From positions 3,624 to 41,745 of the forward strand of contig PARV01000049.1 of NCBI GenBank assembly GCA_002712055.1: DNA of 38,122 nucleotides, read 5' to 3'. Origin of the DNA: Gammaproteobacteria bacterium (GTDB lineage: Bacteria; Pseudomonadota; Gammaproteobacteria; Pseudomonadales; Pseudohongiellaceae). The position numbers were made by a program, and so were the translations under genes. The notes under the pieces were generated by a model, which did no database searches, was not told the DNA's origin, and saw nothing but the letters and a program-made list of their open reading frames with translations. Below, piece by piece: positions 1,914-16,200 of the stretch (the first letter of the stretch is position 1; each line of letters opens with the position of its first letter).

Positions 1914-4181
1914 ATGCGAACTAACACCCCTATAGTTAAACATCTTATCCTGATTGGTGGCGGCCACAGCCACCTTGCTGTCCTAAAACATCTGGGCATG
2001 AAACCGGTTCAGGGGCTTGCGGTTACACTCATCAGCCGTGATATCCATACACCCTATTCAGGCTCACTTCCAGGCTTGATAGCCGGAACATATGAGCATG
2101 ACGACATTCATATCGATCTACGGCCGCTAGCGCAGTTCGCGGGAGCCCGCATAATCCAAGAAGAAATAACCAAGATCGATCTAATCAATAAGCGCATTAC
2201 AACGCAATCTCGCCCGGCACTGGATTTCGATATCTTGTCATTGAATATCGGATCAGAACCTGATGCCCAGCTAATTCCAGGCGCGTTGCTCTATGCGACT
2301 GGCATCAAGCCAATAAGCGAATTTATACCTCAGTGGCACAAAATCTTTGACACCATCGTATCTTCGCTAAGTAATCAGGACACTGAATATACCCTGGCTA
2401 TTGTAGGCGGCGGTCCAGCCAGCGTCGAACTGGCATTTTCCGCACAAGTCAGCATCTATCGTCAGCTGGGTATAAGCCTAACGGAACAATCAAAACTGAA
2501 AATTCAGATCATTAGCGCAGATGATGACGTCTTGAAATCTCATAACCAAGCTGTACGAAATTTCACCCGATCTGAACTGAAACGACGAGGCATAGAAATC
2601 CGACTGCGTAGCCTCGTAACTGAATTTAAAGAGAATACCGTCATTTGTGAAAATGGGGACAGCTATTACGCGGACGCGATTGTGTTTGCAACCGGAGCCA
2701 AAATCCCTAGCTGGCCCGCAGAAAGCGGGTTAAACATCGCTTCCGACGGATTTATAGAGGTGAACAATCATTTGCAATCTACCTCTCATGAATTCGTGTT
2801 TGCTGCTGGCGATGCAGCAACTATAAGAGATGCAAGCCGACCGAAATCCGGAGTTTATGCTGTGAGGCAAGGTAAACCTCTGGCAGAAAATCTAGTGCGC
2901 TTTGCTACCGGGCGCTATTTGAAAAGCTATCGGCCTCAGCGACATGCTCTTGCATTGATGAGCATGGGCGATAAAAAAGCTATTGCTTCACGTAATAAGT
3001 TGTTCTTCAAGGGTGGCTGGGTCTGGCATTTGAAAAACCGTATTGACACCAACTTCCTTAAGAAATACTCAGAACTGCCAGTCATGTCGGCGCCCCTGGA
3101 TTTAGCGAAGGGTCTTGTAGATAAAAAGCTCGAACAGCAGCTCAAAATCCATGCCATGCGCTGCGCAGGTTGTGGAGCCAAGGTAGCAGGAAACGTTCTT
3201 GAAGAAGTCCTTCAACAGTTACCCAATATAAAAAAAGCTGATGTACTGTCAGGCCGCTCGGAGATCGAAGACGCGTCCATGATAAAAATGAGCGATGGCC
3301 GCGTGCTGCTGCAGAGCGTTGATCAACTCAAGGCTTTTATCAGTGATCCCTGGTTATTTGGCAAGATTGCTACAAACCATTGCCTAAGTGATATCTATGC
3401 CATGGGCGCAACTCCTCATTCAGCGCTCGCTGTTGTTGGTATACCTTTTGCCTCAAAAAAATATGTTAGATCTCAGCTCAAAGAACTCATGTTAGCTTGC
3501 AGTGAGACACTACACGAAAATAACTGTGCTCTAATAGGTGGCCATTCAGCAGAGTCAGATGAATTACATTTTGGTTTATGTGTTAACGGATTCATCGAAG
3601 AAGAAAAAATACTGGGCAAAAGTGGTTTGCAAGAGGGTGACACGCTAATCCTAACCAAACCGTTAGGCACTGGCACGCTCCTAGCTGCGGACATGCGTTA
3701 TCGTGCCTCACACCGAAATATTACTGCGGCATTACATCATATGGCTCTGTCCAATAAGCAAGCTGCAGACAGCTTAGTCGAGCATGGCACCAGGGCCTGC
3801 ACTGATATTACCGGCTTCGGCTTGGCGGGACATCTTATCGAGATGCTCTCGGCGGACAATGTTGTAGTAGAACTCACACTCGATAACATTCCCGCACTGG
3901 ATGGCGCTCTGGAATCACTGCAGGCAGGCGTCTTAAGTTCATTGCATCAGGACAACAAACTGATTAGTGAAATGATCTCTGCCCAAACAATTTCGGCGAC
4001 CAATCCGCACTACGAACTTTTGTTCGACCCTCAAACGGCTGGCGGGTTATTAGCCAGTGTTCCCAAGGCTAATGCAAAAAAATGTCTCCTCCATTTAAGG
4101 AAGAATGGTTATACGCAGGCGACCGCAATAGGACAAGTTACCCGGACCGGCGGTGAAAACCCCTCCATAATCCTTAAATAA
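1914..4181 (+). CDS. selD: Fusion protein: FAD/NAD(P)-dependent pyridine nucleotide-disulfide oxidoreductase (NDH-2-like) N-domain plus selenide, water dikinase (SelD) C-domain
   Basis: N-terminal ~370 aa: two dinucleotide-binding motifs (LILIGGGHSH, LAIVGGGPASVE) and an AAGDAA FAD motif. C-terminal ~345 aa: the SelD glycine-rich loop HAMRCAGCGAKV, which aligns to E. coli GAGCGCK with the Cys17 and Lys20 equivalents kept and Cys19 changed to Ala. Also present are EDASMIK, SDIYAMGATP, GGHS and TDITGFGLAGHL, which are AIR-synthase-family motifs. Confidence 0.85.
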   Translation: MRTNTPIVKHLILIGGGHSHLAVLKHLGMKPVQGLAVTLISRDIHTPYSGSLPGLIAGTYEHDDIHIDLRPLAQFAGARIIQEEITKIDLINKRITTQSRPALDFDILSLNIGSEPDAQLIPGALLYATGIKPISEFIPQWHKIFDTIVSSLSNQDTEYTLAIVGGGPASVELAFSAQVSIYRQLGISLTEQSKLKIQIISADDDVLKSHNQAVRNFTRSELKRRGIEIRLRSLVTEFKENTVICENGDSYYADAIVFATGAKIPSWPAESGLNIASDGFIEVNNHLQSTSHEFVFAAGDAATIRDASRPKSGVYAVRQGKPLAENLVRFATGRYLKSYRPQRHALALMSMGDKKAIASRNKLFFKGGWVWHLKNRIDTNFLKKYSELPVMSAPLDLAKGLVDKKLEQQLKIHAMRCAGCGAKVAGNVLEEVLQQLPNIKKADVLSGRSEIEDASMIKMSDGRVLLQSVDQLKAFISDPWLFGKIATNHCLSDIYAMGATPHSALAVVGIPFASKKYVRSQLKELMLACSETLHENNCALIGGHSAESDELHFGLCVNGFIEEEKILGKSGLQEGDTLILTKPLGTGTLLAADMRYRASHRNITAALHHMALSNKQAADSLVEHGTRACTDITGFGLAGHLIEMLSADNVVVELTLDNIPALDGALESLQAGVLSSLHQDNKLISEMISAQTISATNPHYELLFDPQTAGGLLASVPKANAKKCLLHLRKNGYTQATAIGQVTRTGGENPSIILK

Positions 4182-4289: not shown

Positions 4290-5042
4290 ATGAAAATCAC
4301 CAAGAAATTTGAAATAAGCTCGAAAATATTTGCCTACATTATTTGCATCGTGCAGTTTTTGGCACTAAGCATAGAGGTTAATGCGCAAGATAGCGCAACC
4401 AGCAATGTGCTGGATCGCTACGGTGGACTTGATATCGAGCGAGTCGGCCCTACCATCGACCGGGACCTAGCGCAGAAGATGTTTAGGCGAGGTAATACTT
4501 ATAACAACTTGCAACGCTACGAAGAGGCTATCGAAGAGTACCGCAAGGCTATTAGCGCTGATCCCAGTTTCACCGATGCCATCCGGACGTTGGCCAATAT
4601 CTATTACTTTCTAAAACGCTATGAAGAAGCAAAGCCCTTACTTGCTCGATTTATCGAATTGCAGGTCAACCCCTCAGCAAGCCTTATTGCCGCTGTTTCC
4701 ACGTTAGGAGAGTTAGAACGACAATCTGGAAATTTCGATATATCTATAGGGTACGACCTGTATTCTATCGAGCTTGATCCACAAAACGATTCGCAAATCC
4801 ATGTCATGGCAAATACCTATAACAATGCCGGGGATGCTGAAAAAGCTATACAAATTTATCTTGCCGGTATTGAAGTCATGCCAAGCAACGCTTTTTTCGA
4901 TCGCAGTGTTGGTAGAATATTAGAACAGGAAGGTCAGCTTGAGAGGGCGCTTGTCTCGTACGAATCTGCCGCCGCTAAAGAACCGGAATCGGATTTCTAC
5001 AAGACACTAGTAGATAATATACAACTCCGCCTTCAGAGGTAG
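4290..5042 (+). CDS. Secreted tetratricopeptide-repeat (TPR) protein
   Basis: N-terminal signal peptide MKITKKFEISSKIFAYIICIVQFLALSIEVNA|QDS. Repeated TPR-like units are present (YEEAIEEYRKAISADP, YEEAKPLLARFIEL, AEKAIQIYLAGIEVMP, LERALVSYESAAAKEP). Confidence 0.7.
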   Translation: MKITKKFEISSKIFAYIICIVQFLALSIEVNAQDSATSNVLDRYGGLDIERVGPTIDRDLAQKMFRRGNTYNNLQRYEEAIEEYRKAISADPSFTDAIRTLANIYYFLKRYEEAKPLLARFIELQVNPSASLIAAVSTLGELERQSGNFDISIGYDLYSIELDPQNDSQIHVMANTYNNAGDAEKAIQIYLAGIEVMPSNAFFDRSVGRILEQEGQLERALVSYESAAAKEPESDFYKTLVDNIQLRLQR

Positions 5043-5049
5043 ACAACAT

Positions 5050-6141
5050 TCAAAGATAATCCTGTAACCGTTCTTCTCGGTCAGACCTGTCTAGATTGGC
5101 AACACTGCGCACTTTCTCGAAAAAAAGGTCCAGGTTGTTATCAGATTGAATCAACAAATCATTAAAGTACGGCACTAACTCATTATAGGAACTGACGGTT
5201 GCGAGTTGCGCATTATTAAGCGACTGAGAAAACCAGTTATCGTATCCGTCATATCCATTCCAGTCTCGCTTCAGGTCACGATAGCTCTGTCTTAAGTCTT
5301 CCTGCAACTGAGCTTTTCCCTCACGCTTTTCTTCATCAAGCAAGTCAGATTTATAAAGGCTACCGAATCTATCACGGTAATCAGTAACTAACTCAACAAA
5401 TTGCTGTTGACGCAGAATGTTTGCCTCCGCAGCAATAATTTTCTCACCGTCGTTTCCCCGCCTGAGCCATCGTCGAATGCCTTCTCGCTCAACACTGGTA
5501 GCAAAACTTTCATTAAAGCTGGTATCGCCTGGTAGATAAACTATCTGGTGCGCTAGCTCATGAAAAATTAGTCCGGCCAATTGATAATCTGCTCGCTCAA
5601 TCACCGTGCTTAGTAATGAATCTTCAAACCAACCAAGTGTCGAGTAAGCATCTATTCCCCCGATGTATACATCGAACCCATCTGCCTCCAAGTCCCGCGC
5701 GTAACGCGCAGCGCCGGCCTCCGTAAAATAACCACGGTAAGAAACACATCCAGCTATTGGATAGCACCAGTTCACAGGATTTGCCGAAAATTCCGCTGCC
5801 GCAAAGACATTCCAAATGGCGTGCTCTCTCCCCACGTCGACATAAGTGGAATAATTATCTTCGACAGGCAGCCCTAGTTCTTCAACTGCGTATTGGCGAA
5901 TGAGTAATACTTGGTTGAACTTATCCCTTAACTCGGCAGGTATATCGGGTCTCGCCAGAAGTCTTTGAATGTTCTCCCGATCAAACACAAGGGAGAGATG
6001 GCCACGAGCAGCCTGGGAGTAGTAACGGACAGTTTCACAAGAAATCATTAGTACTGAAAGCAGAACAAGTATGCTCAGTTTAATCTGGTTTGCGAATTTG
6101 AAGCTAAAAGACAGATTATTCACCGGCATCGCTAGAGACAC
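5050..6141 (-). CDS. Predicted Zn-dependent aminopeptidase lipoprotein (PF10023 'putative aminopeptidase' family)
   Basis: Lipobox-like VLMISC at about residue 35. HExxH motif in LIFHELAHQ. Family-typical stretches are present ([46 protein letters not shown]). The start is either GTG at 6141 or ATG at 6129, and both overlap the end of yjbQ (by 26 or 14 nt). Confidence 0.7.
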
Positions 6142-6553
6142 CCTGTATCGTAACTACTAGCCTGCGGGAACCCCCATGTTCGCGATGTTCGCCGAGGTAT
6201 AATCCCTGCCAGTTGCCCAACAGCAAGCGACCTTTCCTTATTGGTATATTCAATTCACACCCTAGTAGGCTAGACTTGATATGGGCTGGCATGTCATCAG
6301 CCCCCTCGTATGTGTGCTTATAGTAAGGTGCGTTTTCCGGCACCAGCTCGTTGAAATGCGATTCCATATCGCCCCTCACTAAACTATCCGCGTTTTCATT
6401 GATACTAATTGATGCAGATGTGTGCTGAAGCAGTAGATGTGCCAGTCCAATTTCCACAGAGCTGATCTCGGGTAATTGCCCCATTATTTCGTCGGTGATC
6501 AGGTGAAATCCTCGAGCACGTGGAGTGAGTTTAATCCGCTTTTGCAGCCACAT
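6116..6553 (-). CDS. yjbQ: YjbQ/UPF0047 family protein (secondary thiamine-phosphate synthase enzyme)
   Basis: Size of 145 aa and motifs typical of the family: ...[14 protein letters not shown]..., [45 protein letters not shown]. Confidence 0.85.
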
Positions 6554-6565
6554 GATTAATAACGC

Positions 6566-7324
6566 TTACCGCTGGATCAATTCAATCTCAAAAAGATTTG
6601 CCCAATGCTTTCCCGTGACGAAAAGACGTCGCTGTTCTACATCCCAAGCTATGCCATTTAGGACAGCTTCATTACTGCCCAGTTGAGTCTGGTCAGATAG
6701 CCCTGTCAGATCAATGACAGATTTAACGATACCGGAAGCGGGATCAATGCGCACTATGAAATTGGTTTGCCATACATTGGCCCATATTTCACCATCTATG
6801 TATTCTAGCTCGTTGAGATTGGGTAACGGATTGCCATTAAATGTAACATTGATTTTTCGGCTAGGTGCAAACGTTTCTGGTTCGAGAAATTGAAGTGACG
6901 AAGTGCCGTTGCTAAGAACCAGTTCATTACCGTCGTAAGTCAGGCCCCATCCCTCAGTGGGGTTATAATGGGAACCAGCCAGCTCAAATGTGTCCTTGTC
7001 ATATACGAATACCATGTGAGACTGCCACGTAAGCTGATACAGCTTGTCGTCCACTATTTCGATTCCTTCACCAAAGTATCGTCGATTAAGGCGCGTCGTC
7101 ATCAACACTTCACCATCTTCAAGATTTATCTTGCTCAGTGTGGATAATCCATTTTTACCAGTCCCTTCAAATAAAAACCCCTCGTGGTAAATAAGACCCT
7201 GGGTAAACGAGTTAATGTTATGCGGATAGGTATTCACCAGACTGTATGTAAATTCCCGTACCATCTCCTGGCCAAAACCAAGACCAGAAAGTAGCAACAA
7301 ACAACTACCGATTACAGTACGCAT
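6566..7324 (-). CDS. Glutaminyl-peptide cyclotransferase (plant/bacterial beta-propeller type, PF05096), secreted
   Basis: Signal peptide MRTVIGSCLLLLSGLGFG|QEM. Family motifs are present: FTQGLIY, YFGEGIEI, LYQLTW, EGWGLTYDG, LNELEYIDGEIWANVW, VLNGIAWD, LFVTGKHW. Confidence 0.8.
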   Translation of the reverse strand: MRTVIGSCLLLLSGLGFGQEMVREFTYSLVNTYPHNINSFTQGLIYHEGFLFEGTGKNGLSTLSKINLEDGEVLMTTRLNRRYFGEGIEIVDDKLYQLTWQSHMVFVYDKDTFELAGSHYNPTEGWGLTYDGNELVLSNGTSSLQFLEPETFAPSRKINVTFNGNPLPNLNELEYIDGEIWANVWQTNFIVRIDPASGIVKSVIDLTGLSDQTQLGSNEAVLNGIAWDVEQRRLFVTGKHWANLFEIELIQR

Positions 7325-7456
7325 AATAAAACTATCCTTGAACCTAAAATGCCTTAATGTCTAAAAATCTACTTACTTAAACAGGGCTAGTATAAAATGG
7401 CCAACGATTTCAAAATAGCTCAACCGCCTGCCCTCAAAATAGAAAGGAAGTAACGC

Positions 7457-7804
7457 ATGACTGCCGATTGCTTATTTTGCAAAATTATCTCAGGGGATAT
7501 TCCCTCAAACAAGATCTATGAAGATAAAGATGTCTATGCGTTTCACGACATCAACCCCGCTGCACCATCGCATGTCCTGATAATACCCAAGAAACACTTA
7601 CATGACATTACCGAAGCCAAAGACCAGGATGCTGAGTTGATCGGCAAGCTAGTGCTCCGAGCTAACACAATCGCCGAAGAGATAGGCCTTACAGAAAACG
7701 GTTTTCGATACGTGATCAACACCGGTTCAGACGGTGGCCAGACAGTCTTCCACCTCCACCTACATTTACTCGGCGGCAGACCCATGTCGTGGCCGCCTGG
7801 TTAA
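7457..7804 (+). CDS. Histidine triad (HIT) nucleotide-binding protein, HinT-like
   Basis: 115 aa. N-terminal CLFCKII motif and the histidine triad HLHLHLLGG near the C-terminus. Confidence 0.9.
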   Translation: MTADCLFCKIISGDIPSNKIYEDKDVYAFHDINPAAPSHVLIIPKKHLHDITEAKDQDAELIGKLVLRANTIAEEIGLTENGFRYVINTGSDGGQTVFHLHLHLLGGRPMSWPPG

Positions 7805-8883
7805 GGCCGCTTTAGCAATTGCTTTAGGGAATCCCGGTTCGCTTCGAATACACCTAGCTCCGTGATAAGTCCAGTTACCAGTCGCGCCGGAGTAATATCG
7901 AATCCATAGTTACTGATAGCGACATCGCGTGGCGCGATTCTGACCTGTCTAAAAAGACCGGCTTCGTCAATACCCGTGATATGGCTGACTTCTTCCGCAG
8001 CACGCTGTTCTATGGGAATAACATCGCTATCTACTGAAAAGTCAAAACTGGAAACAGGCAAGGCTGCATAGAAGGGAACGTTATTATCCGAAGCTGCTAG
8101 TGCCTTGAGGTATGTTCCAATTTTATTACAAACGTCCCCGTCGAGTGTGGTCCGATCACTCCCCACCAGTACCACGTCGATATCCCCCTGCTGCATTAAG
8201 TGCCCCCCCGCGTTGTCAACAATCAAGGTGTGAGGAATATCGTGTTGTCCAAGTTCCCAACAGGTTAATGCGGCACCTTGGTTACGCGGTCTGGTCTCAT
8301 CTACCCACACATGAACGGGAATCCCAGCTGACACCGCTTGGTAGACCACTGATAGAGCAGTGCCGCTATCAACGGTAGCCAGGGCTCCTGCATTACAATG
8401 AGTAAGGACGTTTACTATTGACTGCGAAGAGTCTTTAGCCCGCCAGAGAGACTTCAGTATTGGTGCCCCATAGTCCCCAATCGATTGGCATATAGCGATG
8501 TCTTCTTTCTCGATCAACTGGGCCGTTTCCAGAGCTTTCGCAGCTCTCTGATTTAGAGTGGTTGACAAAAGCACTTGCTCTACCCTTTGCAAAGCCCACC
8601 GAAGGTTAACCGCCGTTGTGCGGGTAGCAGATAAGTCTTTAATGGCTTCATCTAGAGAAGCAGGATCTTTTCTTAAAGCTAGATATAAACCATAAGCGGC
8701 GGTCACGCCAATGAGTGGAGCGCCTCTGACCTGCATCTTCGTAATAGCGTGACAAGCATCATGAAGGTTTTGTAGAGCAACAATTTTGAATTCATGAGGT
8801 AGCCGTGTTTGGTCGATGATATTAACCGAATCTGTTTCCATGTCGTACCAGATACTCTGGATATGTTGGTCATCAATTTGCAC
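7801..8883 (-). CDS. mtnA: S-methyl-5-thioribose-1-phosphate isomerase (MtnA / eIF-2B-related sugar-phosphate isomerase; could equally act on 5-deoxyribose-1-P)
   Basis: Motifs IDQTRLPHEF, VRGAPLIGVTAAYGL, THCNAGALAT, VWVDETRPRNQGA-LT, VLVGSDR...GDVCNKIGTY and VPFYAALP are typical of MtnA-type isomerases. Confidence 0.85.
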   Translation of the reverse strand: MQIDDQHIQSIWYDMETDSVNIIDQTRLPHEFKIVALQNLHDACHAITKMQVRGAPLIGVTAAYGLYLALRKDPASLDEAIKDLSATRTTAVNLRWALQRVEQVLLSTTLNQRAAKALETAQLIEKEDIAICQSIGDYGAPILKSLWRAKDSSQSIVNVLTHCNAGALATVDSGTALSVVYQAVSAGIPVHVWVDETRPRNQGAALTCWELGQHDIPHTLIVDNAGGHLMQQGDIDVVLVGSDRTTLDGDVCNKIGTYLKALAASDNNVPFYAALPVSSFDFSVDSDVIPIEQRAAEEVSHITGIDEAGLFRQVRIAPRDVAISNYGFDITPARLVTGLITELGVFEANRDSLKQLLKRP

Positions 8884-8907
8884 GCTTTTTATATTCCCGC
8901 CTTGCTT

Positions 8908-10890
8908 TTAAATCACCCGTTCATTACCTGCGTCCACAGGAATCTGTGCTCCCGTAGTATTGCCAAATGAATTCGCTGCTAGCAGGGTAATCACTGTAGC
9001 CACGTCACTCGATGTTACTTCTTTTTTCAAAATATTCGCGGTCTTGTACTCTTCAATGCTCAAACCATAATGTGCCGCCCGTTTAGCCAGCACCTCATCA
9101 GTCCATATCCCTGTATCGTACACAGCATTGGGATGAACGGTGTTAACTCGAATGCCATTCTCCCCTAGTTCGAGCGCGGCCACCCTTGCCAATTGCGTAA
9201 GGCCGGCCTTGGCCGCTGAATAAGCTGCTGCTCCTGGCCCGGGCGCTGGTACGTTCTTAGAAGCCACTATAACCACTGATGGATCGAACCCGTTTTTAAG
9301 ATACGGCACGCAGGCGCGCAAGACTTTCATATGAGAATTAAGGTTCAACTCTACAGATTGTTCCCAATTCTTATCTTGTATGGAGTCGATAAATTGGCTC
9401 TCGGTAAACGCTCCCGCGTTACTGACCAATATATCAATACCTCCAAACCCACTTATTCCTTGTAGTAATACCCTCTCGATGGCGATGCTATCGGTGATAT
9501 CGCATCTAATGGGTAAGACTGAATTACTGCACATTTCTTCTTCAAAATTTTCGTCTATATCCAGAGCAATAACTGCCGCACCCTTTGCAACAAATTCCCT
9601 GACGCAAGCTCTACCAATACCGGATGCTGCTCCTGTGATCAACGCAATTTTCCCATCAAATTCCGCTTTCGCTGTAGTCGATTTAAGTTTTGCCTGCTCA
9701 AGTTCCCAGTATTCCACTTCGAATAGGTCTTTCCGCGGCAAGGTCTGCCAGCCACCCAATGTCTCCCCTAGCTGTATCGCTCTTACGGTATGCTGGGTGA
9801 TATCCCTTACAATATGCAAGCGCTTAGCATTACCTGCCAGATAAACCAAGCCGCGATTCACCCAGACAGCATAACGAGGCGCACTATCTAAAGAGGTATG
9901 GTCAGAGCCGGCATATTTCTTGTAATAATCAAGATAAGCCTGCTTGAATTCCCTGAGCCCAGCCAGCGGAAAGTCGGTAAGAACGGCACCGAAAGGCTTG
10001 GTATGGATCGTATGGTCTGGTGTTAGAGGTCCGCGAGTGACAAGTTCTCCGCAGTGCGGAAGGCTAGCAAATGCTGCCGCCCTCCCTGAACCATCGAAGC
10101 TAACGAGCAGAGGTCCACCAAAGAGATTGCCCGCTGCCTGCCGGAGAGAGCTGATCTGCTGCGCATCCTCTTTGTTCACACGATATTCACTGGAAGTAAT
10201 GGCTGACTCAGCTGTGTTATCACGGAGATAATCTTCCGCCTTGGTAACGAGCTCGATCATATTCCCATAACTGACCAGGCCATCATCATTAAAGGTAAAA
10301 ATACCATGATGCATTAACACAATGGCCTTTATAGTCGACCAATCCAGTCTTCGGGTCGCCTCAGCCACCTGTTTAGCAAGAACAAAGCCAGGCATGATAT
10401 AAGGCAATATCAGGACTTCGTCACCATAAATTTTTTTAAGCAGCCTTTCTCCGTCGGGCGTATTACTGATTGTTACTACCGCATCGGCGTGGCTATGCTC
10501 AACGTATTTATATGGTATCAAAGCATGGAGAATTGCTTCGACAGAGGGCGTTGGAGCCTCTGGATCAAATAGAGCTAGTCTCAATTGGCGCATCATTTCA
10601 CTGTCACCAAGCGTTTCTAGCTCTCCAAGTTTCCTAAGATATTCCAGTTTCACAGCCGGAAATCCAACGGCCTTTATCGTACGTAAATCCCAGCCTGACC
10701 CTTTTACGAAGAGCACTGTTTCCTCGGCACCAAAAACATTTTTCATAGTGCCTTTTACCGAAGTATTGCCACCTCCATGGAGGACCAGATCTGATTCTTC
10801 TCCCAAGAGATTGGAGGTGTATACGCGTAAGGCGAGCTCTGATTGTGCGGCTAATTCCTGTGCCGTGTGATGATCACATTTATTTCGCAT
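8908..10890 (-). CDS. Bifunctional class II aldolase/adducin-domain protein fused to a short-chain dehydrogenase/reductase (RhaD/YuxG-like)
   Basis: N-terminal half: class II aldolase motifs (LHGGGNTSVK; metal-ligand-like EHSHADAV and LMHHGIFTF). C-terminal ~250 aa: classical SDR motifs (ITGAASGIGRA, NAG, catalytic YSAAKAG). The gene ends 24 nt upstream of the mtnA start on the same strand. Confidence 0.85.
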   Translation of the reverse strand: MRNKCDHHTAQELAAQSELALRVYTSNLLGEESDLVLHGGGNTSVKGTMKNVFGAEETVLFVKGSGWDLRTIKAVGFPAVKLEYLRKLGELETLGDSEMMRQLRLALFDPEAPTPSVEAILHALIPYKYVEHSHADAVVTISNTPDGERLLKKIYGDEVLILPYIMPGFVLAKQVAEATRRLDWSTIKAIVLMHHGIFTFNDDGLVSYGNMIELVTKAEDYLRDNTAESAITSSEYRVNKEDAQQISSLRQAAGNLFGGPLLVSFDGSGRAAAFASLPHCGELVTRGPLTPDHTIHTKPFGAVLTDFPLAGLREFKQAYLDYYKKYAGSDHTSLDSAPRYAVWVNRGLVYLAGNAKRLHIVRDITQHTVRAIQLGETLGGWQTLPRKDLFEVEYWELEQAKLKSTTAKAEFDGKIALITGAASGIGRACVREFVAKGAAVIALDIDENFEEEMCSNSVLPIRCDITDSIAIERVLLQGISGFGGIDILVSNAGAFTESQFIDSIQDKNWEQSVELNLNSHMKVLRACVPYLKNGFDPSVVIVASKNVPAPGPGAAAYSAAKAGLTQLARVAALELGENGIRVNTVHPNAVYDTGIWTDEVLAKRAAHYGLSIEEYKTANILKKEVTSSDVATVITLLAANSFGNTTGAQIPVDAGNERVI

Positions 10891-10960
10891 GTGCCTGCAT
10901 CTCTCTCAGCGTGTCAGTATCGGTTCCTGCTCTTAAAATACATTAATTCACGAGGCAGAA

Positions 10961-10996
10961 ATAAAAAACGCACCATCTCTCGATGATGCGTTTTTG
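10961..10996 (-). terminator. Rho-independent terminator downstream of exbD
   Basis: On the minus strand, GCAUCAUC-GAGA-GAUGGUGC forms a stem of about 9 bp with one G-U pair. It is followed by UUUUUUAU and lies 22 nt after the exbD stop. Confidence 0.6.
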
Positions 10997-11017
10997 TGTG
11001 TAATTCAGCAGTTTCGA

Positions 11018-11437
11018 CTAGTTAGGTTCAACAATTGAAATATTTACCATGCCAGCTTGGCGTGCTGCATCCATGATCATTACCATAGTAGACACATCCG
11101 AATCATAATTCGGCTGGATAATGACTGAGGCTGCTGGATTTTCAGCTTTAAGTTGGTCTATGTTCGCTCGGACCTGAGTCGGAATTACAGGACGGGGATT
11201 ACCGTTCAAGATAATTTCATTATTCGGGCCAATCTCAAAAAGAATATTTTTCAGATCGTCATCTTCAGGTGGTTGCTCGTTTTCATTATTATCGCTACTG
11301 GCTGCATTTATCGCGGTCTCTGAAAGGAATGTAGCCGTAACAACGAAGAAAATTAACAAGATGAACACCACGTCAAGCATCGGAGTTAAGTCGATTTTAG
11401 CGTCATCTACTGATTTGCGACCTGCTATTTTTTTCAT
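11018..11437 (-). CDS. exbD: ExbD/TolR-family biopolymer transport protein (no adjacent ExbB/TolQ or TonB)
   Basis: 139 aa. It has a short cytoplasmic N-terminus and a TM segment IDLTPMLDVVFILLIFFVV containing the conserved TM Asp. The periplasmic domain has ...ILNGNPR..., VIIQPNYDSDVSTMVMIMDAARQAGM. An acidic insert (SSDNNENEQPPEDDD) follows the TM segment. Confidence 0.85.
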   Translation of the reverse strand: MKKIAGRKSVDDAKIDLTPMLDVVFILLIFFVVTATFLSETAINAASSDNNENEQPPEDDDLKNILFEIGPNNEIILNGNPRPVIPTQVRANIDQLKAENPAASVIIQPNYDSDVSTMVMIMDAARQAGMVNISIVEPN

Positions 11438-11673
11438 TGTTATACCTTCTTAAAGCAGTTCAATTATGCCTATTATTTAGTCTTTTCCACGCGAACAAAG
11501 AGTAAATATCGAATCGAGGCCAAATTATATCAGCCAGAGTTGTAGAAGCAACTGCTACTATAGGTTATTGAAAACAATGTAAAAAGGTTCGAATTCTTAA
11601 CGCTTCTTCCAATATTTCTAGCAGTTGAATAGCGCGTTTTCTTCCACAAAATCTATGATATTTTTGAATACTA

Positions 11674-12270
11674 CTACTTTTTTAAAGAATCAATTGTATG
11701 CTTGATAATCTCTTTAAGCTGATTAATGTTCTTGCCATCACGAGAGTTAACGCGAACACCATGCAGAGCATTCATAAGGACATCCGCGGCAAACTCTGTG
11801 CTGATACCTTTTGCCAACTTACCCTTCTTCTGGGCTTCCTTTAATCGAACCATCAGCGCTTTACGAATTGTCAACAATGAAGCTCGTACTACCTTCCTTA
11901 TATTTTTGTCGTAGTTGATACTCTCACATAATGAGTTAACCAATAAACACCCCATCCTGCGTTGCTTGCTTGATGCATTCAACACTGCCTCGTCGAAATA
12001 GGCAGAGATTCCATCCCAGGCATTCAGCTTTTCGTTACCAAGTGAATGAGCGATCTGGTTTTCTAAGATCTTATTGTATTGATCTAAACAGGATTTGAAA
12101 AAAGTGTCTTTGTCACCGAAAGAATTGTATAGCGTACCTCTATTGATGCCTGTGCAATCTAAAAGTTTCTGGACTGAACTTGCCTCATATCCTTCACGCC
12201 AGAACTGTTCCATAGCGCTTGTTAAAACTTCGTTTTCATCGAATTCGACTGGTCGCGCCATAATTCCCAC
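11674..12270 (-). CDS. TetR/AcrR-family transcriptional regulator
   Basis: N-terminal helix-turn-helix region (FWREGYEASSVQKLLDCTGINRGTLYNSFGDKDTFF) followed by an all-helical C-terminal domain. The start is either GTG at 12270 or, more likely, ATG at 12261 (MARPVEFDE...). Confidence 0.85.
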   Translation of the reverse strand: MGIMARPVEFDENEVLTSAMEQFWREGYEASSVQKLLDCTGINRGTLYNSFGDKDTFFKSCLDQYNKILENQIAHSLGNEKLNAWDGISAYFDEAVLNASSKQRRMGCLLVNSLCESINYDKNIRKVVRASLLTIRKALMVRLKEAQKKGKLAKGISTEFAADVLMNALHGVRVNSRDGKNINQLKEIIKHTIDSLKK

Positions 12271-12307
12271 TCAATACCATTTTTTGATTTAAACCCAGAA
12301 CATTCCC

Positions 12308-12338
12308 AAAAAAAATCACTGCTAGGCAGTGAATTTTT
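12308..12338 (-). terminator. Rho-independent (potentially bidirectional) terminator downstream of the DUF445 gene
   Basis: Perfect 7-bp stem TCACTGC-TAG-GCAGTGA (12316-12332), flanked by an A8 run on one side and a T5 run on the other. On the minus strand the stem is followed by U8. Confidence 0.6.
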
Positions 12339-12414
12339 AACCATCAATTTTGGGAGCGCGCTATTGTATTACAGTCGTTTTGGATTTACATCTACTGAAT
12401 TCAAAAAATAATGA

Positions 12415-13146
12415 TTAAGCTTGGTAGTTGGCCACGACCGTAACAATCAATCCTATTAATCCACCAAAAGCACAACCCCATACAACTAGCCAACCTAGGT
12501 GCTTGCGAATCATATCTTGTATGATTTCCTTGACTGTCTGGGGCGTCATCTGATTAAGCCGCTGATCTATTAGACCTTCCAGCTTAGTCCGAATCGCTTC
12601 TTCGTCAAGAGCAGTCTTCAGCGCATCTTGTATTTGATCTTGAAATTCTGAATTACCAAACTGGTCCTTAAAATATTCTCGCATCTTTTGGACGACTGGC
12701 GCTTTCAGCGAATTTAAAGCATCCCGTCCTCCTAACATTCCCAACAAACTGCTAAAAGGCGAAGTCATTATTACATCAATCAGAGATTCGAACGCCGCTC
12801 CCATATCAAGATTATCGATCACTTGTCTTAGTGACCTACCCAGCTTTTCCGGAACTTCCCCTGCACCGTGCAAAAAGACTTCCAGATCAGCATTATGGAA
12901 GAACTGATCCATGATCAGCTTCCGGATACCAGTCTTGAATTCTTCAAAACGCATTGGTATTACACCAGATCCATAAAGAAAAGGTACCCGTTCGAACAAC
13001 ATATGAACTGCTAACCAGTTAGTTACTCCTCCAGACAGGGCAAACAAACCGGTATTAAATACGTAAGTCTTGTAAGGCTCGGCTAAGAAAACCCCTAGCA
13101 CTATAAGACCAGCTGCTATGAGATTGCTGACTAGACTCTTATTGAT
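12415..13146 (-). CDS. DUF445-family inner-membrane protein
   Basis: The motif GGVTNWLAVHMLFERVPFLYGSGVIP and a C-terminal TM segment (GWLVVWGCAFGGLIGLIV) fit my recollection of DUF445. The ORF track starts at GTG 13101, inside a hydrophobic helix. I extend the gene to ATC 13146 (see findings). The conservative coordinates are 12415..13101. Confidence 0.6.
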   Translation of the reverse strand: MNKSLVSNLIAAGLIVLGVFLAEPYKTYVFNTGLFALSGGVTNWLAVHMLFERVPFLYGSGVIPMRFEEFKTGIRKLIMDQFFHNADLEVFLHGAGEVPEKLGRSLRQVIDNLDMGAAFESLIDVIMTSPFSSLLGMLGGRDALNSLKAPVVQKMREYFKDQFGNSEFQDQIQDALKTALDEEAIRTKLEGLIDQRLNQMTPQTVKEIIQDMIRKHLGWLVVWGCAFGGLIGLIVTVVANYQA

Positions 13147-13215
13147 CGTGTTACTCCATTAGTAATACTGAAACCGCTGCATCATAAAGGAACAATCTTA
13201 AATGGAGCACGCCGA

Positions 13216-14058
13216 CTACAACTTCTGTTGCTCACGGATAGGCATACGAGCTCTTATGTCGTTGAGATAATCGATATCTATGTCGGCTACAGCTATTCCC
13301 TCTCCCTTCTCCAAACTAACTAAGATATTACCCCAAGGATCTATGACCATCGAATGACCCCAGGTTTCGCGCTTCTCGTTATGCCTGCCACCTTGAGCGG
13401 CTGCGATGACATAACATTGGTTTTCAATCGCTCGTGCCCGCAACAGGCTTTCCCAATGAGCCTCGCCAGTTACCGCTGTGAATGCTGCTGGCACCGTGAC
13501 AATTTCCACACCCAATTTAAAGAAATCCCGGTAGAGTTCCGGAAACCGCATGTCATAACAGACACTTAGGCCTAAGTGGCCAAGAGGCGTTTTGAGAGTA
13601 GCTATTGCAGAACCGGCCTCATAACTGTGCGACTCGGAATATTCGGTCTGCGCGTCGTTTACTGTAACATCGAACAAGTGGATCTTGTCATAGCGAGCAA
13701 CTTGCTTCCCTTCGCTATCAAATACCAGACAGGCAGCACGAACTTTCCCATCTTCGATTGTGTGTTTGGCATCACTTTGAGATTTGCCGGGTCTTGAAAT
13801 CAACGGAATGGTTCCACCAACCAAGATCAGCTTGTTGCCCCGAGCCTGCCCTACAAGAAAGTCCTGCAGTTTGCCCGTACCTTCCACCTCACCGTACTGC
13901 CTCATAGGTCCTCCTTCCAGCACGGCAAAGACTTCCGGTAACAATACTAATTCAGCACCCTGTTCAGCCGCCTCAGAGATTAATCTGTCTGCCGTAGCAA
14001 GGTTTTCATCAACATCGACAGTACTTACCATTTGAACAGCGGCGACCTTGCTTAGCAT
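13216..14058 (-). CDS. Carbon-nitrogen hydrolase family protein (Nit/omega-amidase-like)
   Basis: Nitrilase-superfamily layout with AAVQM..., LVLLPE (catalytic Glu region), YDKIHLFD (Lys region) and LGLSVCYDMRFPE (catalytic Cys). A gene of this family follows yhdP in the Pseudomonas gene order as I recall it. Confidence 0.85.
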   Translation of the reverse strand: MLSKVAAVQMVSTVDVDENLATADRLISEAAEQGAELVLLPEVFAVLEGGPMRQYGEVEGTGKLQDFLVGQARGNKLILVGGTIPLISRPGKSQSDAKHTIEDGKVRAACLVFDSEGKQVARYDKIHLFDVTVNDAQTEYSESHSYEAGSAIATLKTPLGHLGLSVCYDMRFPELYRDFFKLGVEIVTVPAAFTAVTGEAHWESLLRARAIENQCYVIAAAQGGRHNEKRETWGHSMVIDPWGNILVSLEKGEGIAVADIDIDYLNDIRARMPIREQQKL

Positions 14059-14146
14059 CTACTTACTCATCCTCGTGCTTGTCAACGGACAGTAACTTCA
14101 AATGACTTGACCAGTTTTCCTTCTGAGATCATTGTTGTTACATTGA

Positions 14147-15130
14147 CTAAAAAGTGGCTATCGGATTCATTGGCGATCCCACTCCACCTTCCACAGGGAT
14201 GGGCGAGGCAGTCAACATGAATTCCCAACGCCCTTGCCTGACAGCTTCCTCCGCAAGAGCCTCCAAATCTAAGTTATCAAACAGCCTCACTCCCATGGCT
14301 ACGATAGCAAGTTGATGGATAGGCAGGAAAACTCCTTCAACGCCTGATGGTATAACATCGTTGGCATAATCTCCTCCCAAGACAGCTACATCTCTCTCTC
14401 TTAGCCAAGGTGCAACAGAAGCATGCAACCCCGCGGACCCTTGACCAGCACTCTCCGGTGTAGCCCATCGACCAGTTCTCACGAAAATTACATCCCCAGG
14501 ACCAACGCGAATACCAGCTTGTTCTTCCCAGGCCTCCAGATCTTCTACATACACGGCTGTGCCCGGAGACAAATAGTCCACTCCCTTCAAACGAGGAATG
14601 TCCATGAGTATGCCGCGCGTTAAGATACCTTGCTTCACGTTGGCGATACCTAACTTACGACATCCCTGCTCACTAACTTCGCCCCTACTGAAGCCGTTGT
14701 ACATTTTCCCCTGCCAAAGCACATGGCATAAAGCATCGAGATGGCTGTGAATGCCTCCATGGTATGAAAAGGAAATCCTCTCCATAACGTACTCACCCGA
14801 TGTATTAAGCATGGAAATGCTCTGATCAAATGGAGGAGGCGAACCCAGGTTAGAATCAACCGAGTAGTTGTGTGCAAGCGAAACTGACACTCCTGTCTGC
14901 ACTAACCTAGCAGCAGCAACACGTTTATCGGCTGTAATTAGATTTAGGGCCCCTAACTGATCGCCTTCCTCCCAGCGCCCCCAATTGGATAGCTCAGTCA
15001 TCCAGTTCTCCACCATAGCTGCTGTGACATTATGGCCCGATTGAGCTGCTAGGGTAGGCGCAAAAACCATACTCAACAAAATTGTGACAGAACAGCAATG
15101 AACATAACTGCTGAGGTTTTTGTAATCCAT
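14147..15130 (-). CDS. Secreted cyclase-family protein (PF04199, kynurenine-formamidase-like fold)
   Basis: Signal peptide ...CCSVTILLSMVFAPTLAA|QSG. The metal-binding signature YHGGIHSHLDALCH is of the HxGxHxDxxxH type. Confidence 0.65.
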   Translation of the reverse strand: MDYKNLSSYVHCCSVTILLSMVFAPTLAAQSGHNVTAAMVENWMTELSNWGRWEEGDQLGALNLITADKRVAAARLVQTGVSVSLAHNYSVDSNLGSPPPFDQSISMLNTSGEYVMERISFSYHGGIHSHLDALCHVLWQGKMYNGFSRGEVSEQGCRKLGIANVKQGILTRGILMDIPRLKGVDYLSPGTAVYVEDLEAWEEQAGIRVGPGDVIFVRTGRWATPESAGQGSAGLHASVAPWLRERDVAVLGGDYANDVIPSGVEGVFLPIHQLAIVAMGVRLFDNLDLEALAEEAVRQGRWEFMLTASPIPVEGGVGSPMNPIATF

Positions 15131-15309
15131 TTTCTTATTCCTATAAACGAGTAATGAAGAATCAGAATAATCTTTGCAAAACCAGAAGTCTAACTATCGC
15201 TTTAAGTGTGATTCTGTTTTTCTATAAAAGGAATACCTTTCAATATTCCGTAAGCTAATAAAAAAATAATTCGTGATAGACTACCGCTGAGCATTTTTAG
15301 GAATTAAAC

Positions 15310-16200
15310 ATGAAACTGAAAGCCCTCTTTAAAGTGAGGTTGGTTTTATCGAGCTTCCTCTTACTATCACACGCGGTGGGTCAGAATAACACTGAGCCAT
15401 TGAATATGGGCCCGATAATCAACTCAGGCGCTCGAGATGCAGAACCTACATTTACTTCCGACGGGCAAACCATGTATTTCAATTGTTTCGATCGTAAGGG
15501 TAAGGTTGGCAGCGATATATGTGTTACTCACCGCCAGGCCAACTCGTGGACAGAACCGGAAATTGTCGGAGCAGTGAGTACCGATGAATATCTGGAGGTC
15601 GAGCCACTGCTCTCGCCCGATGGTAACCAGCTTTTCATCATGAGCAATCGACCGGGTGGTTTAGGCGGTACCGATATCTGGGTGAGCGACCTCGTTGGCG
15701 GGGAATGGACGAGTCCAAGGAATCTAGGAGCACCTTTTAACTCTCCAGATTCAGATCACTGCTTGTATTTTTCTGGGGAGAACTGGGAATTTGCCTACTG
15801 GACCTCTACCCGACCAGGAGGCTTCGGAGGAAATGACATATGGATGTCTCAGCGTGTCCAAGGAGTGTGGCAGGAAGCCAGTAACTTGGGACCCGATGTA
15901 AATTCTGCAGCAAGTGAACATCACTCACTGCCTTCTGAAGATGGCAAATCTCTGTATATAACAACTACCAGGGCTGAAGGCTTCGGTATGGAAGATATCT
16001 ACGTCACTACGCAGAATGACCAAGGGAACTGGAGCAAACTGGTGAATCTAGGAGGGGAAGTGAACTCCGACAAGCATGATCGCTGCCCAGCTTTCTCCCC
16101 GGATTTCGAGTATTTCTTCTTTGATTCAGAACGAGCGGGTGGATACGGTAACAAAGATTTGTGGTATGTCCCCTATTCACGAATCGAACACATCCGCTGA
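15310..16200 (+). CDS. Secreted PD40/TolB-like beta-propeller repeat protein
   Basis: Signal peptide MKLKALFKVRLVLSSFLLLSHAVG|QNN. PD40-type units recur (TSDGQTMYFN, SPDGNQLFIMSNRPGGLGGTDIWVS, STRPGGFGGNDIWMS, SEDGKSLYITTTRAEGFGMEDIYV, SPDFEYFFFDSERAGGYGNKDLWYV). Confidence 0.7.
   Translation: MKLKALFKVRLVLSSFLLLSHAVGQNNTEPLNMGPIINSGARDAEPTFTSDGQTMYFNCFDRKGKVGSDICVTHRQANSWTEPEIVGAVSTDEYLEVEPLLSPDGNQLFIMSNRPGGLGGTDIWVSDLVGGEWTSPRNLGAPFNSPDSDHCLYFSGENWEFAYWTSTRPGGFGGNDIWMSQRVQGVWQEASNLGPDVNSAASEHHSLPSEDGKSLYITTTRAEGFGMEDIYVTTQNDQGNWSKLVNLGGEVNSDKHDRCPAFSPDFEYFFFDSERAGGYGNKDLWYVPYSRIEHIR

Follow-up and report, generated by a model that had tools for sequence, protein, structure and literature searches.

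Do some Gammaproteobacteria start their exported proteins with glutamine and cap them as pyroglutamate (pGlu)? The question is raised by a 38,122-nucleotide stretch of contig PARV01000049.1 from a Pseudohongiellaceae genome, referred to below in its full length as the window. It encodes a glutaminyl cyclase (QC) of family PF05096 and several exported proteins in which Gln directly follows the signal peptide. In the Q-rule of the Bacteroidetes, Gln exposed at the first mature position (+1) is cyclised, and the exported proteins are stabilised by the cyclase (PMC5837995, PMC10653852). This rule has been described as occurring "exclusively in the Bacteroidetes phylum" (PMC10653852), and the comparison by Bochtler et al. 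(2018) took in the FCB group, Chlamydiae, Spirochaetes and Cyanobacteria alone, with no mention of Proteobacteria (PMC5837995). A sequence-only reading of the window had stated that no Q-rule was known for Gammaproteobacteria, which agrees with these papers; our literature search found no paper describing a proteobacterial Q-rule and none tying Pseudohongiella or OM182 to QC or pGlu. The same reading had proposed pGlu capping of the exported proteome in this lineage. Comparative sequence evidence supports that interpretation with a strength equal to that of a Bacteroidota control. The exported proteome of OM182/Pseudohongiellaceae probably follows a Q-rule, in which signal peptidase I (SPase-I) would expose Gln(+1) and a periplasmic cyclase would cap it.

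Glutamine after the signal peptides in and beside the window

Cleavage sites were called with a heuristic that detects the n-region and h-region of a signal peptide and then scores sites by -3/-1 log-odds, with a bonus for helix breakers and a c-region length prior. The +1 residue is never used. The heuristic also screens out lipoboxes and further transmembrane segments. It recovers the known E. coli sites of OmpA, OmpF, DegP, Skp, LptA and TolB.

The four Gln codons that the sequence-only reading had placed at +1, in a TPR protein, the cyclase, a PF04199 protein and a PD40 protein, were all verified at their positions (Table 1), and the gene calls and Pfam assignments agree. With an arrow marking the cut, the top-scoring site is the Gln site in the TPR protein (VNA↓QD, score 4.74, in the context SIEVNA↓QDSATS), the cyclase (GFG↓QE) and the PD40 protein (AVG↓QN, score 3.24, in SHAVG↓QNNTEP). 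In the PF04199 protein, the top site is AQS↓G and not LAA↓QS. Its orthologues in loci L015 and L016 read FVTA↓QSDRNVTA, which favours LAA↓QS (APTLAA↓QSGHNV) in the window protein as well, while A-Q-S↓ may still be used. So the claim that cleavage falls at the Gln stands in three of the four proteins by the heuristic. The accompanying caveat, that three of the four have alternative sites, holds for the PF04199 protein only (AQS↓G) and not for the others. The TPR, PD40 and PF04199 proteins fall in the heuristic's SPI class, its class of SPase-I substrates; the window cyclase (GFG) and the TonB receptor described next (GSA) are weak calls under the SPI cut-off. No other SPase-I-type signal peptide was found in window open reading frames (ORFs) of at least 45 aa, the sole extra call being the membrane anchor of YhdP.

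A fifth case is provided by the TonB-dependent receptor at the left edge of the window, whose N-terminus can be read from sibling contigs. The strain variants at L005:15540-17585(-) and L002:15540-17618(-) have differing signal peptides (MKFTFSPFAYLLTTSVFLLNSTGSA and MKYKFESFVRLTSVTALLFSAVVVA, respectively) and an identical QQ mature start: ...NSTGSA↓QQGELEIEE in L005 and ...SAVVVA↓QQDEPEIEE in L002. This gene is called truncated in contigs L001 (569 aa) and L003 (410 aa). Thus, in the window and the adjoining receptor, five of five SPase-I substrates have Gln after the best or homology-supported site. At an E. coli-like rate of ~4%, the chance of four Gln in four is p ~3e-6, or p ~2e-4 if any of three candidate sites per protein is allowed. 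The pattern in the window is confirmed to be far beyond chance.

The neighbours differ in how widely they are kept. The TPR gene is present in 60 of the 80 related loci described below, and 30 of its 31 SPI-class calls have Gln(+1); for orthologues of the TonB receptor, the figure is five of seven. A PD40 homologue is found in just two of the 80 (L015 and L016), and the best NCBIfam similarities of the PD40 protein are to Bacteroidota PorE of the type IX secretion system and to CHU_0125 (OmpA-like). The PD40 gene may therefore have been acquired horizontally from Bacteroidota. If so, its Gln(+1) could be inherited from there and not have evolved in the host lineage.

Gln(+1) in relatives and controls

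Four data sets were compared under the same procedure: 80 related genome loci carrying the cyclase (1.5 Mb); 80 metagenome loci around the amidohydrolase gene that lies left of the window, mostly from the same synteny block as the cyclase loci; 300 kb of E. coli K-12; and 250 kb of Bacteroidota plasmids from Spirosoma, Haliscomenobacter and Runella as a positive control. Gln occupies +1 in 102 of the 154 SPI-class calls in the related loci (66%) and in 48 of 68 in the metagenome loci (71%). The E. coli sample has one Gln in 27 calls (4%), CpoB, where the site is genuine, and the commonest +1 residue there is Ala (11/27). The Bacteroidota plasmids have nine in 14 (64%). The comparison with E. 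coli that the sequence-only reading had called for, run here with the heuristic on loci near the cyclase, hence comes out at 66–71% against 4%. Among the other +1 residues in the related loci, His (10) and Asp (8) come next. Gln accounts for 4.1% of the residues in these loci as a whole and is 16-fold enriched at +1. Splitting the loci at 50% GC leaves the enrichment unchanged (32/50 below, 70/104 at or above), which speaks against a compositional artefact. The +2 residue is acidic (Asp or Glu) at 42 of the 102 Gln-type sites.

Counting by family gives the same direction. Automated clustering found a Gln majority in 16 of 41 families in the related loci and in one of 26 in E. coli (Fisher p = 0.0012). 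Curation removed 15 of the 41 as not being SPase-I substrates, namely cytoplasmic enzymes, membrane anchors, a lipoprotein and spurious ORFs. For six of these, Pfam confirmed the removal (4HBT thioesterase, SpoU methylase, MerR, citrate synthase, patatin and an HlyD anchor), and the others were removed on inspection or because of homology to genes of the window (YjbQ, MtnA, CN-hydrolase, fragments of an aldolase/short-chain dehydrogenase and of YhdP, the PF10023 lipoprotein and three spurious-looking ORFs). After curation, 16–17 of 26 families are Gln-type; allowing alternative sites for an S15 peptidase (GLA↓QD) and a Cu/Zn superoxide dismutase (LTA↓QA) raises the count to as many as 19. About five new credible families come from the metagenome set, with three Gln, one Val and one Ala at +1.

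The Gln-type families have unrelated functions. They include YceI, an M28 peptidase, a PQQ dehydrogenase, a metallo-beta-lactamase (MBL) fold, TonB receptors, DUF5916, an HpcH aldolase fold, NHL, an SGL lactonase, TPR, PF04199 and the cyclase itself, and several of them sit in non-conserved insertions (L063, L064 and L083). This diversity, together with the presence in non-conserved insertions, speaks for a feature common to the exported proteome and against a local operon effect. In the YceI-like neighbours (e.g., L076:15945-16535), the +1 position lies right before a conserved WSLDN motif and is occupied by Gln (17), His (7), Glu or Asp.

The PF05096 cyclase

The cyclase was predicted by the sequence-only reading to be secreted, and closer analysis bears this out at the level of sequence features. 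A predicted SPase-I-type signal peptide (7324-7271, MRTVIGSCLLLLSGLGFG) is followed by Gln19, and all catalytic residues are kept. The Pfam match spans positions 20–249 of the 249 in the PF05096 profile. PDB sequences match over the whole mature domain, the closest being the enzyme of Z. mobilis (3NOL, 2e-69), then those of X. campestris (3MBR, 3e-60) and papaya (2FAW, 7e-55). The M. xanthus enzyme 3NOK is also matched, and the weakest E-value among the solved QCs is 3e-47. The papaya residues Q24, E69, N155 and K225 correspond to Q42, E86, N171 and K239 of the window cyclase (FTQ42GL, YFGE86G, LN171ELE and VTGK239HW), and these four are invariant in an alignment of 34 family members. No NCBIfam model matches the cyclase or the PF10023 protein encoded downstream of it.

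The cyclase h-region does not end in a lipobox; the only Cys, residue 8, comes ahead of the hydrophobic core, and homologues do not conserve it. In most of the 120 listed cyclase homologues, the signal peptide visibly ends ...A↓Q(E/D). The heuristic places the site before the Gln in 78 of 91 scorable homologues, and the sites in the homologues are mostly A-x-A. A profile search of 1.8 billion representatives, made without taxonomy, indicates that diverse PF05096 QCs are mostly lipoproteins or have no clear signal peptide, a result that tells little of how far the rule extends.

From these features, the following sequence of events can be proposed. SPase-I would cut after an A-x-A-type motif and thereby bare an N-terminal Gln on most exported non-lipoproteins. 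The soluble periplasmic type I cyclase, itself exported and Gln-starting, would then turn this Gln into pyroglutamate. We presume that the Gln residues are indeed cyclised and that this cyclase does it. The blocked N-termini would shield the exported proteome from aminopeptidases. Such a shielding role for pGlu was proposed in mBio in 2023 (PMC10653852), and we presume that it is the purpose here too. One candidate for such an aminopeptidase is the lipoprotein zincin whose gene shares an apparent operon with the cyclase.

Weighing the evidence

Several points weigh against a general Q-rule in this lineage. The cleavage sites come from a purpose-written heuristic and not from SignalP, and the heuristic is two residues off for E. 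coli MalE and LamB. Before curation, the family-level Gln fraction is 39%, and about one third of the credible substrates start otherwise (His, Asp, Ile, Tyr or Ala). The PD40 homologue in L016 is called SPA↓APQN, with Gln not at +1. For the cyclase itself, the G-F-G site in the window is weak, and the Gln lies 14 residues before a YPH motif in 71 of 78 homologues. Given this fixed spacing, the cyclase Gln could be a conserved mature residue, and so the rule rests on the pattern across families. We had considered that the cyclase-family Gln shifts along with the end of the signal peptide; this was dropped given the same spacing and retained only for a few indel variants. Finally, all sampled loci lie within ~20 kb of the cyclase gene, synteny is strong, and only ~26–31 independent families are represented. 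Since sampling is confined to the vicinity of the cyclase, a genome-wide extent of the bias is something that we infer.

One alternative accepts the Gln(+1) bias and does without cyclase-dependent capping. The bias would reflect a preference of SPase-I at P1' or selection for Gln because it cyclises spontaneously, and PF05096 would have a narrower set of substrates or another role. We consider this unlikely. In its favour, possession of PF05096 alone does not imply a rule, as many of the diverse homologues do not begin with Gln or are lipoproteins, and uncatalysed cyclisation of Gln does occur, though slowly (PMC5837995). Against it, a P1' preference on its own does not explain why an exported cyclase is retained, and the cyclase is present in all 80 related loci, which were retrieved by their cyclase homologue, with the four catalytic residues invariant in the 34 members aligned. 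Moreover, exposed Gln has been found as pGlu in both lineages for which mass spectrometry (MS) data exist, Bacteroidetes and Novosphingobium.

Less probable still is that the bias is local, with the surroundings of the cyclase rich in dedicated substrates and the remaining exported proteome Ala-type. The sampling would allow it, in that all of the DNA comes from ~10–20 kb around the cyclase gene in a highly syntenic block, and the largest Gln families (cyclase, TPR, YceI and TonB receptor) are conserved neighbours. Set against this are the Gln-type M28 peptidase, MBL hydrolase, DUF5916, HpcH, NHL, SGL and PQQ dehydrogenase proteins found in non-conserved insertions, and Gln in 10 of 28 uncurated singleton calls as compared with one of 26 E. 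coli families. The new families beyond the amidohydrolase, three in five of them Gln-type, point the same way.

That the pattern is chance or artefact, with sites misplaced and the Gln truly at -2 in an A-Q-A motif or at +2 or +3, has very little to recommend it: Gln often stands at -2, both in E. coli and in the related loci (25 of 154 calls), A-Q-S↓ is plausible in the PF04199 protein and the two displaced E. coli sites are of this kind of error, but the residue after the Gln in the TPR, cyclase, PD40 and TonB receptor proteins is D, E, N or Q, never possible at -1, so that Gln cannot be at -2 there, and a procedure in which +1 is unscored yields 66–71% Gln here, 4% in E. coli and the expected 64% in Bacteroidota.

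Comparison with known systems

We therefore return to the Q-rule as the preferred reading and ask how it compares with systems already described. The likeness to Bacteroidetes is close. Most SPase-I substrates there have Gln(+1), at a frequency that the heuristic puts at 62–66% here and 64% in the Bacteroidota plasmids, and published SignalP-based Q-values for Porphyromonas species are 59–77%. In both, a glutaminyl cyclase is encoded that is exported and has its active site intact, and lipoproteins, with Cys at +1, are exempt. The differences lie in the host, which is here a member of Pseudomonadota (Gammaproteobacteria, Pseudohongiellaceae), and in the cyclase. Here it is soluble, an SPase-I substrate and itself Gln-starting, whereas ~87% of Bacteroidetes plant-type QCs are lipoproteins, and its gene is paired with that of a lipoprotein zincin peptidase in 78 of 80 genomes. 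A gene annotated 'glutamine cyclotransferase' is found on the Spirosoma linguale mobilizable plasmid pSLIN01 (L105:37878-38966); QC genes might spread horizontally by way of such a Bacteroidota plasmid.

The solved type I QCs (3NOL, 3MBR, 3NOK and 2FAW) share with the window cyclase the PF05096 domain, at E-values of 2e-69 to 3e-47, and the conserved catalytic Q, E, N and K. They differ in having been characterised in vitro with no known substrate set, whereas the gene context here suggests that most of the exported proteome may serve as substrate. The role of type I bacterial QCs has been stated as not fully known (PMC7948796).

In the periplasm of Novosphingobium aromaticivorans, top-down MS identified 25 Sec-cleaved proteins, nine of them with a mature N-terminal Gln, and all nine were found as pGlu (PMC3608174). 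This 2013 study is an overlooked proteobacterial precedent for Gln-starting, pGlu-capped exports. As in the present lineage, the host is a proteobacterium with many Gln-starting Sec-cleaved proteins. It belongs to the Sphingomonadales, the order of Zymomonas, from which the closest solved QC comes. Unlike the present lineage, it is an alphaproteobacterium with a lower fraction (36%), and the Gln was never tied to a cyclase nor named a rule. On the N. aromaticivorans plasmid pNL2 (L107-L109), we count two Gln among ~6 credible signal peptides, an anecdotal figure for DNA in which the high GC defeats the ORF caller. Two TonB receptors on this megaplasmid start A↓QA and A↓QD. These observations hint at a possible Q-rule alongside type I QCs in further Proteobacteria. 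The Xanthomonas plasmid pXCV183 was tried as a QC-bearing gammaproteobacterial comparator and rejected, being conjugative and having too few Sec substrates.

The cyclase, yjbQ and PF10023 gene cluster

The cyclase, yjbQ and PF10023 genes lie head to tail on the same strand (5050-7324, -), with yjbQ 12 bp past the cyclase stop and overlapping the peptidase ORF. PF10023 is the last gene of an apparent cyclase-yjbQ-peptidase operon. The arrangement is well kept. The cyclase is followed by PF10023 on the same strand in 78 of 80 related genomes, 30 of them without an intervening yjbQ, and in 77 of the 80 loci, PF10023 is 0.6–1.3 kb downstream of the cyclase start on that strand. The yjbQ gene is present in 50 of the 80; where it is absent, the peptidase comes directly after the cyclase. 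On the other side, a divergent HIT-family gene is upstream of the cyclase in 80 of 80.

The PF10023 protein has a profile match (E 1e-111) and the HExxH motif HELAH; its aminopeptidase activity is a prediction from Pfam. A conserved operon of cyclase and peptidase fits the idea of pGlu as a shield against aminopeptidases and would suggest an arrangement for self-protection. One can go further, tentatively, and suppose that pGlu capping is one half of a two-gene 'cap and trim' module with PF10023 and that the Q-rule tracks type I QCs in several proteobacterial lineages; we regard this extended proposal as rather doubtful. In it, the cyclase would shield the cell's own exported N-termini, and the co-transcribed envelope lipoprotein PF10023, with other exopeptidases, would degrade imported or foreign periplasmic peptides while sparing the cell's own proteins. 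The Q-rule would follow type I QCs in Pseudohongiellaceae and Sphingomonadales and would not be peculiar to Bacteroidetes.

Gene content of the window and host lineage

The window has a GC content of ~46%, and its gene order is gammaproteobacterial, including mreBCD-maf-rng-yhdP, gatCAB, hemA-prfA-prmC and lolB-ispE. The presence of LolB together with the mreBCD-maf-rng-yhdP run is consistent with a gammaproteobacterial placement. A scan of GTDB with the cyclase, one genome per species, recovered the 80 related loci at 55–88% identity, nearly all from OM182, Pseudohongiella or Pseudomonadales metagenome-assembled genomes (MAGs). The named ones among the 120 listed cyclase homologues (66–99% identity) are Pseudohongiellaceae, Pseudohongiella, Pseudomonadales or Gammaproteobacteria, and Pseudohongiella is classified in the Gammaproteobacteria, order Pseudomonadales. 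Many marine metagenome contigs, including ones from Tara Oceans, carry a cyclase protein identical to that of the window. With its nearest genomes being OM182, Pseudohongiella and Pseudomonadales MAGs, the host is a gammaproteobacterium, and the taxonomic premise of the sequence-only reading stands. Misbinned Bacteroidota DNA was considered and is ruled out by the gene content of the window and the identity of the closest genomes.

Features of the exported-protein loci and their neighbours are collected in Table 1. Three lipoproteins are encoded in the window: the PF10023 peptidase, a large TPR protein and LolB. No exported proteins are encoded on the right flank (prs, rplY, pth and ychF), for which ~5 kb beyond the window was read from metagenome contigs; on the left, such contigs extended the reading by ~3.4 kb. 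A search of the window for a dispersed repeat found none.

Among the genes between the exported-protein loci, the disulfide oxidoreductase fusion is kept as a neighbour in 69 of the 80 related loci. The MtnA-like isomerase and the aldolase–dehydrogenase fusion are kept in 74–75 of the 80 and look like a sugar-phosphate or methylthioribose-type salvage pair. The ExbD/TolR-family gene is solitary, with no ExbB or TonB gene adjoining, and its position is kept in 73 of the 80.

Table 1. Features of the window discussed in the text, in window coordinates.
Feature	Position	Strand	Evidence and details
TonB-dependent receptor, C-terminal 594 codons	1..1785	+	N-terminus left of window; no stop codon in 1-75
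Fusion (755 aa) of PF07992 pyridine-nucleotide disulfide oxidoreductase and selenide,water dikinase-like AIRS/AIRS_C domains	1914..4181	+	
Exported TPR protein	4290..5042	+	Pfam TPR families; signal peptide 4290-4385; Gln33 = 4386-4388
PF10023 zincin, 'putative aminopeptidase', predicted lipoprotein	5050..6141	-	Pfam PF10023 E 1e-111; HELAH; lipobox LMIS↓C
YjbQ (UPF0047)	6116..6553	-	TIGR00149 E 9e-41
Type I (plant-type) glutaminyl cyclase, 252 aa	6566..7324	-	Pfam PF05096 E 1.4e-90; Gln19 = 7270-7268
MtnA-like (IF-2B family) isomerase, then class II aldolase–short-chain dehydrogenase fusion (660 aa)	7801..10890	-	
ExbD/TolR-family protein	11018..11437	-	
Exported PF04199 cyclase-family protein	14147..15130	-	Pfam PF04199; signal peptide 15130-15044; Gln30 = 15043-15041
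Exported PD40 beta-propeller protein	15310..16200	+	Pfam PD40; signal peptide 15310-15381; Gln25 = 15382-15384

Significance

A Q-rule of equal strength in a gammaproteobacterial family would contradict the published exclusivity to Bacteroidetes, and the trait would have arisen or spread independently. The proposal to use QC inhibitors as drugs selective for Bacteroidetes is built on that exclusivity. For OM182/Pseudohongiellaceae, which are abundant in the sea, blocked N-termini would alter metaproteome searches for secreted enzymes and receptors, where pGlu would have to be allowed as a variable modification at predicted sites. Signal-peptide predictors are trained mainly on E. coli-like sequences, and their performance on this group would be affected. 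The bacterial type I beta-propeller QCs have solved structures and no known targets, and the present result points to the exported proteome as their substrates. If the 'cap and trim' module and the wider Q-rule were true, these enzymes would gain their long-missing physiological substrates. The conserved pair of cyclase and predicted aminopeptidase offers a concrete handle on why cells cap their exported proteins.

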